The translations under genes and the position numbers were made by a program. Shown here piece by piece: positions 1 to 10,642 of a stretch of 45,074 nucleotides of DNA. The notes beneath the pieces are model-generated. The model saw only the letters and a program-made list of their open reading frames with translations. It had not been told where the DNA came from and did no database searches. How positions within the stretch are numbered: the first letter of the stretch is position 1; each line of letters opens with the position of its first letter. Source of the DNA: a virus (Duplodnaviria > Heunggongvirae > Uroviricota > Caudoviricetes); IMG/VR virus record IMGVR_UViG_2908567220_000008, positions 1-45,074 of that record; one strand, given 5' to 3'.

Positions 1-1260
1 TCATATTCCTATCGCCATGCCATGGGGCATGGATGGGGCAAAGTCCGATAATTTCTGGTTCAACATAGCAATCTGATCGCTGCTGCTGTCGGCCATCCAG
101 GCGCCGTAAACATTGAAAACCATCTGGGCGCTGGCGTGTCCCATCTGGCTGGCAATGAAACTCGGGTTGGCCCCGGCAGACAGCGACCAGCAGGCGTAAG
201 TGTGTCTCGACTGATACGCCTTGCGGTGCCTTAAACCTGACCGTTTAAGCGCCGCATCCCATGAGTCACCAACTGAATCGGCTTTGTACAGGTAACCTAC
301 GCTGCCACTGTTTTTAACCAACTGAGGATTGAACACAAATGTACAGTCGTGAATGACCGTTCGGCCATACTCCCGCAGTTGTACCTCAACCTGATACTGC
401 CTGCCTAACCTGGTCATTTCCGCCTGGTTCCTCAAAGCGTCAATGGCTGGCTTGATCAGGTGAACGACCCTGTCGGTACCGGCTTCGGTTTTTGGTAGAG
501 TGAAATCACCGAGTTTCGTATAATTCCGGCGTATGGTCATCGTTCCAGTTTTCAGATCTATGTCTTCCCATGCGAGGGATACCAGCTCGCCGTGACGTAA
601 TCCTGTGTATACCGCAATTGACCACAGGTTTTTCGTTTGCTGATGCTTGCAGGCATCTATGAAGCGAACGAATTCATCACGTGTGAGCGGATCTGGTTCT
701 ATCCTGGCCCTCTTTAGCGGCTTGATGCCGTTAAACGGGTTTTCACTCACATAGCCATTATCAACAGCAAACTGAAACATACCCGCGATCGTGGTCATGT
801 AGTAGTTTACCGTCACCACACTCAACCCTTTATCCCCCGCCAGCATATCCTTCCTGATATAGAGAAGCTCTTCTCTTGTCACAGACGAAACCAGCTTATT
901 CGCGCCAACCCTCGGCAGCATGCTTCTCACTACCGATTCGTACCTGTTTATGGCATTAGCGCAGATCTCCATCCGTTTAAGCTCAAGCCATTTTTCAGAC
1001 AGATCTTTTACGGTGATATCTTTCGTCCCGATGCCGAAAGTTTTCAGATTTGGCGAGTTGGGGAATTGGGCCGCATAGTCAAAGGTCCCCATGCGGATAG
1101 CGAAACAAACTGACGTTCTCAGCTCCCCGGCCACCTTCCTGTTTTTAGCGGTGTCAGGGACACCGAGGTTTTCCCTGACACGCTTACCTTTAAAAATGAA
1201 CCATATGCGGAGTGACTTTCCGTGGTTCTCAACGCCCGTTGGGTATGATTCTTTACTCAT
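1..1260 (-). CDS. int: Tyrosine-type phage integrase (complete; stop codon at 1-3)
   Basis: 419 aa ORF with ATG at 1260; C-terminal region has the R..H..R..Y catalytic layout of tyrosine recombinases (HTYACWSL, final Y in VYGAW). Sits at the prophage edge next to an excisionase-like gene. Confidence 0.9.
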   Translation of the reverse strand: MSKESYPTGVENHGKSLRIWFIFKGKRVRENLGVPDTAKNRKVAGELRTSVCFAIRMGTFDYAAQFPNSPNLKTFGIGTKDITVKDLSEKWLELKRMEICANAINRYESVVRSMLPRVGANKLVSSVTREELLYIRKDMLAGDKGLSVVTVNYYMTTIAGMFQFAVDNGYVSENPFNGIKPLKRARIEPDPLTRDEFVRFIDACKHQQTKNLWSIAVYTGLRHGELVSLAWEDIDLKTGTMTIRRNYTKLGDFTLPKTEAGTDRVVHLIKPAIDALRNQAEMTRLGRQYQVEVQLREYGRTVIHDCTFVFNPQLVKNSGSVGYLYKADSVGDSWDAALKRSGLRHRKAYQSRHTYACWSLSAGANPSFIASQMGHASAQMVFNVYGAWMADSSSDQIAMLNQKLSDFAPSMPHGMAIGI

Positions 1261-1987: not shown

Positions 1988-2829
1988 ACGCCCCCCATAT
2001 AAGCGCGAATGAAAGCCGCAGCTGCCTTGGCGTTTATAGCGTTACCGTACCCTTTCAGGCGGCCGACGCGGTTGCTGCTTGCCACTCTTGCCACCCCGGG
2101 CTCGACTCGTCCCATGCGTGCGGCAGCCCCATCAACCAGCGGGAATGTGCCGGGTTCAACTGGACGCCATTTTCCATCTCGACAAAAGAGCCAGTCCGCA
2201 TCTCGCCAAAAACCGTTAACCTCAAGGGCCCGATAATCCCCGCGAAGTCCTGCAGGCGCTGTTGAGTCTTGCTCCCGCCCTGGCGCCCGGACGTTCCCGC
2301 GCCGGTCACTGATGACGCTGTAGGCGTTGGCCACCCAGTAGGCCCGCTCTCTGATGTGCGGCGCACCGATGCCCGCTGACGTAAACGGCACAAGCCCGAA
2401 GGCGTATCCCAGTCCTTCCAGGTCTGCTTGTACAAGGTCGAACCAAGCATTTGCGTTACCGCTTGCAACCTGTTCGCCAAAGACATGCTGAGGTCTGCGC
2501 TCGCTGATGAGATGGAAGAAGTGGGGCCAAAGGTGCCGCTCGTCAGCAAACCCATCTCCTTTGCCTGCCGCGCTGAAAGGCTGGCACGGGCAGGAGCCAG
2601 TCCAGACCGGGCGATCGTCAGGCCATCCGGCGAGGCGGAGGGAATGGGACCAGACGCCGATACCGGCGAAAAAGTGGCACTGGGTAAATCCTCTGAGGTC
2701 GTCAGGTGTGACATCTTCAATACTCCGTTCGTCAACTTCGCCAGGGGCGATATGCCCGGCGGCTATGAGGTTACGCAGCCACTGCGCCGCGAATGGGTCA
2801 ATCTCGTTGTAGTAAGCCGCCGCGCTCAT
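1984..2829 (-). CDS. DNA (cytosine-5)-methyltransferase, orphan
   Basis: FAGIG (motif I) and PCQPFSAAGK (catalytic PCQ motif IV). Start taken at the ATG at 2829, which overlaps the stop of the upstream methyltransferase; the ORF track extends to 2862. No restriction endonuclease partner seen. Confidence 0.85.
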   Translation of the reverse strand: MSAAAYYNEIDPFAAQWLRNLIAAGHIAPGEVDERSIEDVTPDDLRGFTQCHFFAGIGVWSHSLRLAGWPDDRPVWTGSCPCQPFSAAGKGDGFADERHLWPHFFHLISERRPQHVFGEQVASGNANAWFDLVQADLEGLGYAFGLVPFTSAGIGAPHIRERAYWVANAYSVISDRRGNVRAPGREQDSTAPAGLRGDYRALEVNGFWRDADWLFCRDGKWRPVEPGTFPLVDGAAARMGRVEPGVARVASSNRVGRLKGYGNAINAKAAAAFIRAYMGGV

Positions 2830-3482
2830 GCTGCCTCCGTCTTCACAACATCGATGGCGCATCCAGGTATCAGCTCAACTGAAGCGGTGGCGCACTGGTT
2901 ACCCCAGTGACTCCAGCCTGGCGCTGCGCTGCGGCTGAATAACTCAATCCGCGGCACGTCGCCGTAGAGCAGTTCCAGGCGGTGCCGAACTTCCCACGGT
3001 TTCTCGCTGTGCGCGCCGAGCGGGCTGTAGACCACCTGCTTAATTCCAGCGTGCTTGCGTTCCAGCCCGGCGCCGCGGGTGGCGATCAGCACGTCTTCGG
3101 TATTGGCGCGGGTATGGTTGCCACCGTTCATGCGCGTCTCGGCATTCAGCTGGTCGAGGAAGTCGTAAAAGTTGGTCACATTTCCCTCTGCCAGAGCCTT
3201 GGTAATGCGCAGCTCGGCTAGCTGATTCAACTTCACCCAGGTGAAACCCTTCATCGTGCGAACCGTAAAGCCCCAGGCTTCAGCCAGCTCGATCGCCTCC
3301 TGGTTGTGGGTGCCGGTGTACCACATCGCCAGCACAGCGTTATCCGCGGCGAGCTCCCACACCGGGAGCCGCTTCATATCGAGCAAGCTCATGGTGGGAT
3401 AGTGATCGACGGCGGCACCGTTGCTGATCGTGTTCCCGTAAGACCAGGCCGGGTCAGCATAGATAAGTGAGTAGCGGTTCAT
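2826..3482 (-). CDS. MT-A70-family N6-adenine DNA methyltransferase, orphan
   Basis: 218 aa with N-terminal IYADPAWSY (DPPW-type catalytic motif). RBS agagg upstream of the ATG at 3482. Confidence 0.8.
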   Translation of the reverse strand: MNRYSLIYADPAWSYGNTISNGAAVDHYPTMSLLDMKRLPVWELAADNAVLAMWYTGTHNQEAIELAEAWGFTVRTMKGFTWVKLNQLAELRITKALAEGNVTNFYDFLDQLNAETRMNGGNHTRANTEDVLIATRGAGLERKHAGIKQVVYSPLGAHSEKPWEVRHRLELLYGDVPRIELFSRSAAPGWSHWGNQCATASVELIPGCAIDVVKTEAA

Positions 3483-6435: not shown

Positions 6436-6522
6436 GGTTTCCCCTGAAATTTGGTTGTAAGAATCCCGGCACCGTATTGGCTGCCTGATAGCTCAGTTAA
6501 ATTCGTGCGCTGATATGCGCGG

Positions 6523-6717
6523 TTAATGCGTCCCGGCTGGAACCAGATTCGGCAGCAGGTCGCGTGCCTCAAATGCTTTGCGAATGTGGCGCAGGTTGCC
6601 CTGTGGCTCGAACCAGAAGGTTTCTTTCAGGTAGTCACGTGAAACCTTCCAGGTGGCGCCAGTTTTAGCGTTACGCATCATCACGGCGCGTCCGCTGTTA
6701 GGAATTGAGTTAGCCAT
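6523..6717 (-). CDS. Hypothetical protein
   Basis: ORF-track frame 6523..6753; start taken at the ATG at 6717 (MANSIPNSG...). Confidence 0.45.
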   Translation of the reverse strand: MANSIPNSGRAVMMRNAKTGATWKVSRDYLKETFWFEPQGNLRHIRKAFEARDLLPNLVPAGTH

Positions 6718-6820
6718 TGAACACCCCCGTAACGTGCAGAATTTTGATAACAACAGCCGACCAGATAACGCCGCAGATCAGCAGGCAGTAAATCAGTGAA
6801 CGAATGCCTTGTTTGCTCAT
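6710..6820 (-). CDS. Small hydrophobic peptide (36 aa), putative membrane protein
   Basis: Hand-translated MSKQGIRSLIYCLLICGVIWSAVVIKILHVTGVFNG; one predicted TM helix. Its ATG overlaps the stop of the upstream small ORF. Confidence 0.4.
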   Translation of the reverse strand: MSKQGIRSLIYCLLICGVIWSAVVIKILHVTGVFNG

Positions 6821-6924
6821 TTGCCACCCCAGCACGGATAGCTAACTGCGAGAACAGCAACCAAAAACGGAACGACCTTTAACCAAAAATTACGCCATGC
6901 AGGCTTGTCTTCTTCGCGGATCAT
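6817..6924 (-). CDS. Small hydrophobic peptide (35 aa), putative membrane protein; first gene of the leftward operon
   Basis: Hand-translated MIREEDKPAWRNFWLKVVPFLVAVLAVSYPCWGGK; strong SD (aaggtgaagag) ahead of the ATG. Confidence 0.4.
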   Translation of the reverse strand: MIREEDKPAWRNFWLKVVPFLVAVLAVSYPCWGGK

Positions 6925-7006
6925 CTCTTCACCTTTGCCTTATCGCGGCTAACGGGACGTTTTGACTTCACCCCGGCGTTGCCGGTGTTGTTTGGATGAG
7001 ATGATA

Positions 7007-7082
7007 ATAGCAATGAGTATTAACCATAGCAATACGTATTGTTATTATTTGATAGCTATTGCTATTAAATCATTGATAGCTA
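7007..7082. promoter_or_regulatory. Operator-like repeat cluster (putative OL-type operator and promoter region)
   Basis: ATAGCAAT at 7007 and 7026; near-palindrome ATAGCAATACGTATTGTTAT at 7026-7045; ATAGCTATTGCTATTA at 7052-7067; TTGATAGCTA at 7073-7082. The same ATTGCTATTA core recurs between cI and cro. Confidence 0.4.
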
Positions 7083-7144
7083 AATGAATTTATTTTTTCC
7101 TATTGTGCTGTTATGCTCAAAAAAACGCCAAAAAGGGTAGCGCC

Positions 7145-7348
7145 ATGTCGAATGAGGATGAGTTTTTCGCAGAGATGCACCCGCAGATTGCGCAGGTCAT
7201 CGGGATAGCGGTTATGCAGCTGCTGGTTGAGAGGCGCGAGCCATCAAGAGAGGCGCTGATAGAGATGATTCAGGTGTTGTGGCAGGGTGACCAGGTAGAT
7301 CTGGCAGTAGAGCTGGCACTGGATGTGCTGATGCTGCGGGAAGAGTAG
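7145..7348 (+). CDS. Hypothetical small protein (67 aa)
   Basis: ATG at 7145 (MSNEDEFFAEMHPQ...), in the same frame as the longer track ORF 7103..7348. Plus-strand gene convergent with the kinase module. Confidence 0.5.
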   Translation: MSNEDEFFAEMHPQIAQVIGIAVMQLLVERREPSREALIEMIQVLWQGDQVDLAVELALDVLMLREE

Positions 7349-7354
7349 GGCAGT

Positions 7355-7377
7355 AAAAACCCGGCGCGGTGGCCGGG
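7355..7377 (-). terminator. Intrinsic terminator for the kinase/DUF3037 transcription unit
   Basis: GC hairpin cccggc-gcggtg-gccggg (7360-7377) followed on the minus strand by a U-run (plus-strand aaaaa, 7355-7359), 17 nt past the stop at 7394. Confidence 0.55.
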
Positions 7378-7393
7378 TGCTGGCAACAGTTTG

Positions 7394-8212
7394 TTAGTTA
7401 AAATTAAGGCTTTTCCCGGCAGCGACTAACATATGATCGTAGTATTTAGACATATCTTCGCTACTTAGCAAGTTGAAGACATTGTCAGCATAACCTCCAA
7501 CCAAGTTAAGTTGCTGAGAGTGCGCTTTTTCCTGAGGTGTATCAGCAGCATAAACCACAAAAGTCTTCACGCAGTTATTCCACTTGGTCTTAGCTGCGTT
7601 TATTGTCACAGCTTTAAACGCTGACTCACCCATTTTTTGGCGATTATTGGAAATCCGTAGATCTAAGGTTTCAGTTAAATGATAAATTCCATTTTTTAGT
7701 AAAAGTTCAGCATAAAGACCTTCAGATTCAGAAAGCGGATACCCCTGAACCACTTTATGCTCGCTAATTTCCTTGAGATTCTTACCCATAACTCCTTCTT
7801 TTTCAAACCTATCCTTAAGCTCGGTAATAATTCTTTTTTGAGAAACTTCAGTTCTTTTCTTCGCTCGCTCAGGTGTTATGAATAATTTATTTAATTCATT
7901 GATTTTTAATTCATATTCACGTTCATTGGCAGCATGAAATGTACCTACGCTTGACAAGGCAAAGCTACCTTGGAAAAAGAGAGAAGCCTGTTCGATGCTT
8001 AAGCCAGAAGTTAAAATAGTCTCCAGTTGCTTCTGGCTATTTTCTAATGCTTCAAGCCCAAAATCATTTGTAATAGCTTTTAGTTTAGTAGGGGTTTCTA
8101 TGACGCGCACATCTGGGCCAGATGGCTTCATGACGACAAGGCCAACGTTGATTGTCTCGGCGCGGACAGGGTTCGGTGTTATTCTGACAATACTGTATTT
8201 ATATGTATTCAT
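7394..8212 (-). CDS. DUF3037-like protein (272 aa), partner of the HipA-like kinase
   Basis: N-terminus YSIVRITPNPVRAETINVGLVVM resembles the DUF3037 family (from memory, needs HMM confirmation). ATG overlaps the kinase stop (ATGA). Visibly AT-rich. Confidence 0.6.
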   Translation of the reverse strand: MNTYKYSIVRITPNPVRAETINVGLVVMKPSGPDVRVIETPTKLKAITNDFGLEALENSQKQLETILTSGLSIEQASLFFQGSFALSSVGTFHAANEREYELKINELNKLFITPERAKKRTEVSQKRIITELKDRFEKEGVMGKNLKEISEHKVVQGYPLSESEGLYAELLLKNGIYHLTETLDLRISNNRQKMGESAFKAVTINAAKTKWNNCVKTFVVYAADTPQEKAHSQQLNLVGGYADNVFNLLSSEDMSKYYDHMLVAAGKSLNFN

Positions 8213-9033
8213 TTCAGCACCTCCCCTCTAACAGTGTCGATTCGTTTCATTCTGCCGTCGCTTGACCACCAGGTTAGCAGAGCATCCCTCTGCAAAGGAT
8301 TGATCCATGCTTCCGGCATGTCTTCAAAAATCCGTTCTATCGTGCTAGAGCTAATTCTGGATAGCTTATCCAATACAGCTTCCGCAGGCGCTTTACACGA
8401 AACATCATTATATGTCAACTGCTTGATCGCTTGCCAGCAGTTTGTGGTGTTGTAGCCCATTGGTATTAGGGCTGCGTCGGTTTTGTTCGGCCAACCCATA
8501 ACCATAGCTGCAAGGCTGAAATCGAAGGCTTGGATAGTCAGGTTTCCATATCGGTTCTTAGTGTACAGATAGTTACCAATATGCCTATCAATATTAAATA
8601 CGAACTGATCGAAGGCGTAAACTGACCATACTTGCTTCCGTAGAATAGAAGGTCCGGACATCAATTCAGCGGCAAAGTTAATTTCTTCTTGTGGCTTACT
8701 CATGGCAGCCAGGTCATATTTTGATCCAAAAAAGTGCTCTCCTGTATCCGGGTCAATCAAAACCCTACAGGCCGGGGTAGGAAGCCCACTAAATTCAGCA
8801 AGTTTAGTACATAGCCATTCTGATGCTGGAATTTGCTTTGGGTGGGGAATCCCTGTCAAAGCGGATGCATCACCATCAGAAACCCCTTTTATTGCATACT
8901 CTAAACCGTCGGAGGCCATAACTGTATGCCTTAGGTGAGCTGTGCCCATTGCTGGCTTATAATCCACAATCTCAAGACTAAACAAGGGTTCTTGAATAGT
9001 AATGTTCTTTTCAGGTTGTGAGTCTTCTTCCAT
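8209..9033 (-). CDS. HipA-like / CtkA-like atypical kinase-fold protein (274 aa)
   Basis: FNIDRHIGNYLY matches the N-x-D-x-H-x-x-N catalytic-loop pattern of HipA-family kinases (E. coli HipA has D-x-H-x-K-N). AT-rich coding sequence. Confidence 0.6.
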   Translation of the reverse strand: MEEDSQPEKNITIQEPLFSLEIVDYKPAMGTAHLRHTVMASDGLEYAIKGVSDGDASALTGIPHPKQIPASEWLCTKLAEFSGLPTPACRVLIDPDTGEHFFGSKYDLAAMSKPQEEINFAAELMSGPSILRKQVWSVYAFDQFVFNIDRHIGNYLYTKNRYGNLTIQAFDFSLAAMVMGWPNKTDAALIPMGYNTTNCWQAIKQLTYNDVSCKAPAEAVLDKLSRISSSTIERIFEDMPEAWINPLQRDALLTWWSSDGRMKRIDTVRGEVLK

Positions 9034-9143
9034 TTTTATTCCACTAATTGATTAGTGATAGATTCCACCGGGTACTTCATTGCTGCTCTGAACTTAAGCT
9101 TTATTGCCCTTCTGGGCGGCGAGGAACCGCGAAGCGCTCTTAT

Positions 9144-9169
9144 CCATGCTTCCTGTACGTCTTCGGCAT
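9144..9169. repeat. Direct repeat copy 1: duplicated 3' end of the cI gene
   Basis: ccatgcttcctgtacgtcttcggcat matches 9347-9372 at 25 of 26 positions; on the minus strand it reads MPKTYRKHG-stop, the same as the CI C-terminus. Confidence 0.7.
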
Positions 9170-9200
9170 TACCAAAAACACATCGAACTACCGGTCTGGC

Positions 9201-9320
9201 TCACTCAAAGTCATCCCGCTCATCCTTCCGCTTGAAGAAAACTTTATCCAGCCTGAGCACTATCCCAACCAGTCCGATAATCAGCAAAGTAATGAGTATT
9301 GGGATAATCAGATCAGACAT
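9201..9320 (-). CDS. Small membrane peptide (39 aa) immediately downstream of cI
   Basis: Hand-translated MSDLIIPILITLLIIGLVGIVLRLDKVFFKRKDERDDFE; SD gaggaag ahead of the ATG; flanked by the 26-bp direct repeats. Confidence 0.45.
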   Translation of the reverse strand: MSDLIIPILITLLIIGLVGIVLRLDKVFFKRKDERDDFE

Positions 9321-9342
9321 GCTTCCTCTGCGTGCTAAGGCT

Positions 9343-10041
9343 TTACCCATGCTTCCTGTACGTCTGCGGCATGCTGCCGATCACCTTGCCGAACACGAAA
9401 ACACGATTCATTTCGTCTTTCTCGATCGGGTCCCAGGCTGCATAGCTCTTGTTATCTGAGATAACCAGCAGCTTGTCCTTCATCTTCTGCAGGCGCTTGA
9501 CGTGAGCAGTGTCGTCGTACAGGAAGGCGTATATCCCGTCGCCGTCGAAGCTCTTAACGCTGATGTCGACGAACAGCAGATCACCCGGCTCAATCGTGCC
9601 GGACATGCTGTCACCCCGGACGTTGATGATCCGGATGTTCTCAGCCTTACGCCCATCGAACATGTGCCGGGCTTCAGCTGGCTCATACTCAACAGAACGG
9701 AGAATCTCGACGAACTCCTGGTTCACGATGCCCGGCCCGGCACTAACCATAAGGTCCAGCACATCAATCCTGAATGCATCAGTATCCTGGCTTTTAACCT
9801 GGGCAGCGCGAGGGAGCTGGCCGTCATCGCGCATCGGTCCATTTCCGGTTGATAACCATTCAGACCTGACGCCCAAAGCATTAGCTATCTCGACAATTTT
9901 TGTTGAACCCCTGGCGTTTCCACTCACCAGGCGCCAAATGGTTGGCTGAGCAATACCTGAGGCCTTCGCAAGCGCCCCTTGTGACATTCCAGCCGAAGCC
10001 ATGGCCTCGTTTAAACGATCTGCAAGAGTTTCTTTTTTCAT
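9343..10041 (-). CDS. cI: CI-type phage repressor (HTH_XRE plus S24 LexA-like autopeptidase)
   Basis: N-terminal HTH (MSQGALAKASGIAQPTIWRLVSG) and C-terminal S24 signature (VRGDSMSGTIEPGDLLFVD ... VKRL). Start taken at the ATG at 10041; the track ORF begins at a TTG at 10104. Confidence 0.85.
   Translation of the reverse strand: MKKETLADRLNEAMASAGMSQGALAKASGIAQPTIWRLVSGNARGSTKIVEIANALGVRSEWLSTGNGPMRDDGQLPRAAQVKSQDTDAFRIDVLDLMVSAGPGIVNQEFVEILRSVEYEPAEARHMFDGRKAENIRIINVRGDSMSGTIEPGDLLFVDISVKSFDGDGIYAFLYDDTAHVKRLQKMKDKLLVISDNKSYAAWDPIEKDEMNRVFVFGKVIGSMPQTYRKHG
9347..9372. repeat. Direct repeat copy 2 (authentic 3' end of cI)
   Basis: ccatgcttcctgtacgtctgcggcat, encoding the last residues of CI (MPQTYRKHG). 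Confidence 0.7.
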
Positions 10042-10152
10042 AATCTCAAATTTATACGCTTGCGTATTACTGGTCAAAACACGTTTTGCTATTGCTAAAA
10101 CCAATACGCATTGCTATTATCATTTTGCACCAATACTTATAGGAATTGGAAC
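10042..10152. promoter_or_regulatory. Divergent cI/cro operator-promoter region (OR-like)
   Basis: Intergenic region between divergent cI and cro containing GCTATTGCTA (10088-10097) and ATTGCTATTA (10110-10119) next to CAATACG. Confidence 0.5.
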
Positions 10153-10380
10153 ATGACGAACAAAACCATCCAGAAGGCAATTGATATCGCTGGCAGTCAG
10201 AAAAAATTGGCCGATCTGTGTGGCGTAGCGCAGCCGACAGTTTGGCGCTGGCTGCATGGCGGCGGAATTGACGCTCGCTATGTAATGAAAATCGTGTCTG
10301 CGACCAACGGCAAGATTAAGGCGGCAGAGATCAGGCCTGACCTTGCTCAGTTGCTGAGCGCGCATTCACCGGCCGCCTAA
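10153..10380 (+). CDS. cro: Cro-like HTH regulator
   Basis: 75 aa from the ATG at 10153; HTH QKKLADLCGVAQPTVWRWLHG; divergent from cI. Confidence 0.75.
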   Translation: MTNKTIQKAIDIAGSQKKLADLCGVAQPTVWRWLHGGGIDARYVMKIVSATNGKIKAAEIRPDLAQLLSAHSPAA

Positions 10381-10420
10381 CCAGCGGCCATTCCAAACAA
10401 CACCAGAGGAAGTATCACAA

Positions 10421-10642
10421 ATGGAGAGTTCAACGACACGCAACAAAGTGGAGGCTCGCAGGATAGAAAGCTGGTTACACAGCCAGATAGCTGAACTGGG
10501 AACCACGAATATCGCCAAAGTGGCCGGAGTGAATAAGTCGACGGTGAGTCGCTGGCGGGAAAGTCTGCTGCCGAACATGTCGCTGCTGCTGGCCATCCTG
10601 ATTTCTAACAGGCCGGGAGAGAAAGGTGATTTTGAAGCATGA
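10421..10642 (+). CDS. cII: CII-like transcriptional activator
   Basis: 73 aa; alignable by eye to lambda CII (RIESWLHSQIAELGTTNIAKVAGVNKSTVSRWRESLLPNMSLLLAIL versus lambda ALRIESALLNKIAMLGTEKTAEAVGVDKSQISRWKRDWIPKFSMLLAVL). Confidence 0.8.
   Translation: MESSTTRNKVEARRIESWLHSQIAELGTTNIAKVAGVNKSTVSRWRESLLPNMSLLLAILISNRPGEKGDFEA

Follow-up and report, generated by a model that had tools for sequence, protein, structure and literature searches.

The closest described relatives of the locus analysed here are two-gene cassettes that pair a HipA-like kinase with a DUF3037 protein. The locus itself consists of two minus-strand genes for such a kinase and such a partner, located in a 45,074-nucleotide stretch of DNA (hereafter the window, meaning that whole stretch) that corresponds to positions 1 to 45,074 of the Caudoviricetes record IMGVR_UViG_2908567220_000008 in IMG/VR. 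We estimate a probability of about 0.65 that this pair is a prophage-borne, toxin-antitoxin-like abortive-infection module of the HipA_2-kinase/DUF3037 class, representing a divergent clade within it.

The system DS-6 has been validated as phage defence in E. coli (DeWeirdt, Mahoney & Laub, Science 2026; PMC13092281). Its first protein, DS-6A (WP_000389051.1), is a HipA-related kinase, and its second, DS-6B (WP_000210934.1), carries DUF3037 together with a weak DUF1829 call (PMC13092281). Both genes are on the minus strand with the kinase first (2415-3164, 249 amino acids (aa)), followed by the partner (1591-2418, 275 aa) with a 4-bp overlap (PMC13092281 supplement). Defence is lost in the DS-6A catalytic mutant D139A, and AlphaFold3 predicts a complex of DS-6A with DS-6B as well as possible DNA binding (PMC13092281). 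According to the same report, DS-6 is the system named HipAD, which Brenes & Laub identified independently when they studied the defence systems of E. coli prophages (Cell Host Microbe 2025). The literature searched for citations of that study yielded no further mechanistic detail on HipAD. In addition, a HipA-like/DUF3037 pair located beside Retron-Sda1 defends by itself; deletion of its kinase gene abolishes defence, and deletion of its DUF3037 gene is toxic (PMC12548924). The same composition is represented by the PADLOC candidate PDC-M66, in which A is the HipA-like kinase and B is the DUF3037 protein. Payne et al. 2024 make no mention of PDC-M66, HipA or DUF3037, and the RefSeq proteins of the window pair are absent from the DefensePredictor tables.

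An initial annotation, made by a model from the sequence alone, had proposed the pair as a candidate undescribed defence or abortive-infection module. A role of this kind is plausible, but the module cannot be called undescribed given PDC-M66, DS-6/HipAD and the Sda1 cassette. Because DS-6/HipAD and the Sda1 cassette have been validated, the pair largely belongs to an already characterised system.

Relationship of the window pair to described cassettes

The window pair and DS-6 share the organisation of a kinase-first, two-gene operon with a 4-bp overlap, and their products are of similar length (274 and 272 aa, compared to 249 and 275 aa). Neither includes a HipB-like helix-turn-helix (HTH) protein, and both are prophage-borne; the 99% homologue of DS-6B belongs to a lambdoid prophage, where kilR-gam-recT lies downstream of it. 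A BLASTP alignment of the window kinase with DS-6A (23% identity, E 0.003) places NIDR over NADR, and thus D149 of the window kinase corresponds to the D139 of DS-6A. Comparison by hhalign of the window kinase family profile with DS-6A gives a probability of 92% (E 5.8e-7) over 167 columns.

For the partner proteins, pairwise similarity is confined to approximately 25 N-terminal residues. The profile of the window partner family matches that of the DS-6B family with a probability of 95.8% (E 8e-9) over residues 2-140, which rises to 97% (E 1e-10) with deeper alignments. Homology reaching into the C-domain, to residue 198, was considered and rejected, because the C-domains alone gave a probability below 1%. 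Similarly, the two C-domains gave a profile probability below 3% with shallow and deep profiles alike. Judged from these alignments, the partners are homologous solely through the DUF3037 domain and the linker that follows it. Even this domain is matched to different extents, as the window partner covers positions 1-67 of the 118-position DUF3037 model in Pfam, whereas DS-6B matches all of it at 85 bits. The two partners are alike in overall length and two-domain layout, yet their C-domains cannot be aligned.

The window pair has the identical two-protein composition of PDC-M66, although full-length, confident matches to both models are not reached. It also resembles the Retron-Sda1 cassette, compared here by description, in that a stand-alone HipA-like kinase accompanies a DUF3037 protein, and our functional model is taken from that system. 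However, the Sda1 cassette is part of a retron locus and has a small HTH gene ahead of it, and the C-terminus of its partner is similar to a retron type III DNA-binding protein. On sequence grounds, the window pair is best placed as a divergent and poorly detected clade of the HipA_2-kinase/DUF3037 class, with a partner C-domain that is either different or diverged past recognition.

The kinase and its partner protein

Full-length homologues are numerous for both proteins, with E values down to about 1e-180, which indicates that the two open reading frames (ORFs) are genuine genes. The initial annotation had described overlapping minus-strand genes of 274 and 272 aa joined by an ATGA at 8209-8212, and both the coordinates and the junction agree with our reading. 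The minus strand reads ctgaaATGAatac at this point, with the kinase TGA at 8211-8209 and the partner ATG at 8212-8210. A Shine-Dalgarno-like run, GAGGGGAGG, is located shortly before the partner ATG and within the 3' end of the kinase gene. The 4-bp overlap suggests that the two genes are translationally coupled.

The kinase matches Pfam HipA_2 (PF20613) at 28.4 bits, narrowly above the cut-off of 27, and phrog_3162 at 2e-38; neither the kinase nor the partner matched NCBIfam. Its residues 146-157 (FNIDRHIGNYLY) carry N-x-D-R-H-x-x-N, the HipA/CtkA catalytic loop already noticed in the initial annotation. Conservation among 20 homologues is 100% for K49, N147, D149, R150, N154 and D171, and 95% for H151. 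The AlphaFold model, for which 20 homologues were used, has a predicted local distance difference test score of 82 and a predicted template modelling score of 0.82, and the best solved-structure matches found by Foldseek are CtkA, Legionella HipT and HipA. The intact catalytic residues, the metal-binding Asp included, point to an active-looking, minimal kinase of the HipA/CtkA type. The PDC-M03A models of PADLOC fit window-type kinases about as well as PDC-M66A does (16 of the 20 members, best E 2e-6), which suggests that HipA-like candidate defence kinases form a wider set whose members have different partners.

The window kinase shares its fold and catalytic-loop pattern with the HipBA and HipBST systems, and the same logic is proposed for it, in which a co-encoded protein neutralises a kinase that arrests growth. 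However, a canonical hipBA locus can be rejected, as the initial annotation had recognised. HipBA includes the HTH antitoxin HipB, with the antitoxin gene first, and HipA is about 440 aa in length, whereas the window kinase is shorter and lacks the HipA N-terminal domains. Moreover, the Pfam HipA_C score of 20 bits is under the cut-off of 30.5. Instead of hipB, the kinase is preceded by cI and by a membrane ORF of 49 aa that belongs to the cI module, and no HTH antitoxin gene was found at the cassette among the ORFs and Pfam matches of the upstream region. This 49-aa ORF (9201-9350), the sole small ORF nearby, was considered as a hidden antitoxin and rejected. The same ORF, of 150 nucleotides (nt), follows the same cI allele in the Klebsiella phage ST11-VIM1phi8.2 (locus L020, 2853-3002) despite the different, ParA-like cargo in that phage, and therefore the ORF is not considered part of the cassette. 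Rfam found no RNA families across positions 6500-10500.

The N-terminal portion of the partner matches Pfam DUF3037 (PF11236) at 33.6 bits (cut-off 22.6) over residues 6-70 only. This agrees with the DUF3037-like start reported in the initial annotation, and the additional C-terminal half noted there is indeed present. The annotation had also regarded the length of the protein as unusual, and this view does not hold, because proteins of this family are normally about 270 aa long. With the partner profile, 700 cluster representatives are recovered, nearly all full length, and the 193 that reach E<=1e-30 are almost all 260-300 aa, in line with the 275 aa of DS-6B.

The predicted fold of the partner C-domain contains a restriction-endonuclease-like alpha/beta core. 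In an alignment of 159 family members, [D/E]169, K/R173, N174 and D184, which are located on beta2/beta3, are 94-99% conserved, and the canonical (D/E)-x-K motif is absent. Nuclease families of Pfam matched none of 23 partner family members, a Foldseek search with the C-domain gave no match at E<=0.001, and the partner had no match in a profile search of PDB sequences. A nuclease-like fold with conserved residues but without the canonical motif makes nuclease activity uncertain, and so the C-terminal half is described here as a predicted nuclease-fold domain of uncertain activity. The combination of near-invariant acidic and basic residues at the strands of a PD-(D/E)XK active site with a lack of similarity to the C-domain of DS-6B raises the possibility that this domain senses or cuts DNA. 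We regard as speculative, and rather unlikely, the extended proposal that it does so and that DUF3037 partners join a constant kinase-binding head to an exchangeable sensor or effector tail. If true, the pair would constitute a two-component kinase-nuclease defence, unlike a plain HipBA-like toxin-antitoxin pair.

An exchangeable slot in the immunity region

The window is a lambdoid prophage, and the cassette is located inside its immunity region, between the OL-type operators and cI. Operator-like repeats yield seven matches compared to 0.65 expected, and none of 100 shuffles reached seven. An additional match of this type, with three mismatches, is present at 9286-9301 within the 49-aa ORF. 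The cI product matches Peptidase_S24 (9e-18), HTH_3 and Phage_CI_repr, and is annotated in RefSeq as WP_032443189.1 in E. coli ES2. The 49-aa ORF is probably co-translated with cI.

The initial annotation had placed the pair where lambda carries rexAB, between cI and OL/PL, and comparison with related phages bears this out. In Klebsiella phage ST101-KPC2phi6.1, a close relative, rexA and rexB are found between the same flanking genes (locus L002, 3078-4361), and in ST11-VIM1phi8.2 these genes enclose a 358-aa ParA-like gene (L020, 1631-2707). Because sister phages hold either rexA/rexB or the ParA-like gene at this site, it is established as a rexAB slot and an exchange hotspot. No Rex family match was obtained for the kinase or the partner in Pfam, PADLOC, NCBIfam or PHROGs. 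The ParA-like cargo, for which PADLOC gave no match, is a candidate defence gene in its own right. The phage vB_Kpn_RAH1 carries four hypothetical genes at the matching slot. In the window, 30 nt of the cI 3' end are duplicated; the copy is probably a seam or scar of recombination, and it would delimit the exchangeable cargo on the right.

Base composition agrees with this picture of exchange. The initial annotation had described the module as AT-rich relative to its neighbours, and its guanine-plus-cytosine (GC) content is 0.42 (partner 0.387, kinase 0.451) compared to 0.521 for the whole window, placing it at the 4th percentile among window stretches of the same size. This foreign base composition supports the conclusion that the cassette is horizontally acquired cargo. 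A terminator belonging to the module, also proposed previously, is evident as a minus-strand hairpin and T run at 7378-7359, and this hairpin is predicted to close a transcription unit formed by cI and the cassette. In the 310-nt gap between cI and the kinase gene, neither a terminator-like nor a promoter-like site is predicted. Read-through from the cI transcript is therefore plausible, though only inferred, and the rexAB genes of lambda are transcribed in this manner.

Abortive infection by a kinase encoded in this slot next to cI also has a precedent. Friedman et al. are said to have described in 2011 that Stk of phage 933W, a prophage tyrosine kinase encoded beside cI, excludes HK97. Unlike the window kinase, Stk is eukaryotic-like and is not accompanied by a DUF3037 partner.

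Named close homologues of the pair occur mainly in Enterobacterales, with some in Vibrio and Plesiomonas. Kinase and partner are always adjacent, and the parallel identities of their homologues, which are found on contigs of matching length, indicate co-divergence. In Yersinia prophages the pair is found with a 4-bp overlap right downstream of an S24-type cI, and in Rac-like Enterobacter prophages it has the same overlap right downstream of the repressor. The overlap is likewise present in a Klebsiella P4-like integrative element, with an Abi_2 gene nearby. In a Vibrio cholerae cassette array rich in toxin-antitoxin genes, the two genes abut without overlap among ParE/Phd cassettes. Thus, the pair travels as a cassette among mobile-element hotspots. 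In one Yersinia genome (GCA_052217105.1; locus L017, 4116-6822), an insertion sequence of the DDE_Tnp_1 type separates the partner from a kinase truncated to 212 aa, which could represent natural inactivation of the toxin gene.

The clade of the window pair is rare in E. coli, with representatives in two of 5,426 complete genomes. In strain ES2 a window-type prophage is located beside yecE, and a 2.1-kb query spanning 7300-9400 matches it at 100%. Strain OW1E2 (NZ_CP067245.1, 992144-993352) carries a module allele of 69% identity in the same cI-adjacent slot, where it adjoins a cI 3' end that is 95% identical. PHROGs contains families for both kinase and partner, and a tblastn search of 50,697 phage records with the partner as query returned no match. 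An apparent 541-aa fusion of kinase and partner (P0269) has a garbled middle and is likely a frameshift artefact, and was therefore given no weight as Rosetta-stone evidence.

Table 1. Positions of the cassette, its immunity-region neighbours and other annotated features in the window (protein features are numbered by residue).
Feature	Position	Strand	Description
Kinase gene	8209..9033	minus	274 aa; HipA_2-family Ser/Thr-type kinase; predicted toxin/effector
Partner gene	7394..8212	minus	272 aa; DUF3037 N-domain and C-domain; predicted antitoxin/regulator
ATGA stop/start overlap	8209..8212	minus	Read directly in the sequence
Kinase key residues	K49; N147-I-D149-R150-H151-x-x-N154; D171-F
Partner domains	DUF3037 ~1-112; linker 113-127; C-domain 128-265		Linker disordered; C-domain alpha/beta
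Intrinsic-terminator-like hairpin and T run	7350..7378	minus	Hairpin at 7378-7359; stem ACCCGGCCACCGCGCCGGGT then TTTTACTGCC
Operator-like repeat clusters, ATAGCAATRCGTATTG	7007-7045 and 10077-10117		Presumed OL (OL-type, left limit of immunity region) and OR, respectively
Conserved 67-aa acidic protein	7145..7348	plus	phrog_3946; convergent with cassette; left slot border in all related phages
30-nt direct repeat	9140..9169		93% to cI 3' end (9343-9372); ~200 bp past cI stop
49-aa single-pass membrane ORF, MGKALARRGSMSDLIIPILITLLIIGLVGIVLRLDKVFFKRKDERDDFE	9201..9350	minus	cI stop overlapped by 8 nt
cI-type repressor	9343..10041	minus	HTH and S24 peptidase; upstream of cassette; probable transcript source
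Gly_rich_2 protein	39465-40250		At low-GC island
Acyl_transf_3 acyltransferase	40229-41320	minus	In low-GC island
450-aa protein	41616-42968		No family match; at low-GC island
IS3-family transposase	43022-44193		HTH_21, rve and rve_2; inserted near right end of window

A second island of low GC content (<0.42) is present at 39800-42100; it probably represents a moron that is either serotype-converting or associated with tail fibres.

Proposed function and alternative explanations

As an abortive-infection module, the pair would be transcribed together with cI in the lysogen, presumably from PRM, as is the case for rexAB in lambda, with transcription ending at the terminator hairpin (7378-7359). 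Translation would be coupled by the ATGA overlap so that kinase and partner are made together, and the partner would keep the kinase inactive via its conserved DUF3037 domain. On infection by another phage, a trigger that is possibly sensed by the clade-specific nuclease-fold C-domain of the partner would release or activate the kinase. The freed kinase would then phosphorylate an essential target, probably in the translation apparatus, and the resulting growth arrest would abort the infection. HipA acts on GltX and HipT acts on TrpS, and it is by analogy with these two kinases that a target in the translation apparatus is proposed. The kinase is favoured as the toxin because of the knockout phenotypes of the homologous cassettes.

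Some of this evidence could also be accommodated by an addiction module, in which post-segregational killing stabilises the prophage or its immunity region and no meaningful anti-phage activity is involved. The toxin-antitoxin-like layout with translational coupling would fit such a role, as would the location of the Vibrio cholerae homologue among ParE/Phd cassettes and the toxic effect of deleting the DUF3037 partner in the homologous Sda1 cassette (PMC12548924); furthermore, HipBA-type modules are described as stabilising genomic islands (PMC8978831). We nevertheless consider addiction unlikely as the sole function, since both of the tested homologous cassettes are kinase-dependent phage defences and a sister phage fills the slot with rexAB. 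Defence and addiction roles are also compatible with each other. The restriction-endonuclease-like core of the partner suggests a somewhat less likely arrangement, in which the PD-(D/E)XK-like C-domain is the effector, or a DNA sensor that cuts, and the kinase serves as sensor or switch. Against this arrangement stand the missing canonical D...(D/E)xK motif and the negative Pfam (23 members) and Foldseek (E<=0.001) results for nucleases. Moreover, toxicity on deletion of the Sda1 partner and loss of defence on deletion of its kinase fit the kinase, rather than the partner, as the toxin.

More improbable still is a moron kinase that acts by lysogenic conversion, altering host physiology such as persistence or tolerance, or tuning prophage induction. 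The pair does adjoin cI, a site of lysogen-expressed genes, and HipA-family kinases are described as causing persistence or tolerance. However, homologues have been validated as defence systems, and the cassette is also found in hotspots outside prophages, namely the P4-like island and the cassette array, which implies that its role is not tied to the lysogeny circuit of one phage.

Certain observations nonetheless weigh against assigning the window pair a function like that of the validated abortive-infection systems. Identity to those systems is low: the kinases share 23% and the N-domains of the partners about 21%. The partner C-domain has no detectable similarity to that of DS-6B, and consequently regulation could differ. 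The matches to the PADLOC models are marginal, with PDC-M66A at 15.4 bits (E 0.0019) and PDC-M66B at 27.2 bits over positions 1-72 of 281, and the sole basis for proposing co-transcription with cI is that no terminator or promoter is predicted in the 310-nt gap. DS-6 itself matches the two PDC-M66 models at 53 and 57 bits over almost their full length. Window-type proteins as a group match these models in 22 of 23 partners and 14 of 20 kinases, mostly in the same weak or partial manner, and PADLOC would probably miss the window locus.

A specialist would not be surprised to find such a pair here, since the immunity regions of prophages are recognised as hotspots of defence and this type of system has been published. 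What the locus adds is a position: a recently validated class of HipA_2 kinase plus DUF3037 protein is now located at the site in a lambdoid immunity region that rexAB classically occupies. The seams of this slot are defined and its contents vary among rexAB, a ParA-like gene and the present pair, so that it is a good place for finding further cargo. The class is also far broader than its detection models, as seen from the 700 partner cluster representatives set against marginal PADLOC matches. The divergent clade provides a natural comparison set, in which the conserved N-domain of the partner may reflect kinase binding and the variable C-domain may reflect trigger specificity.

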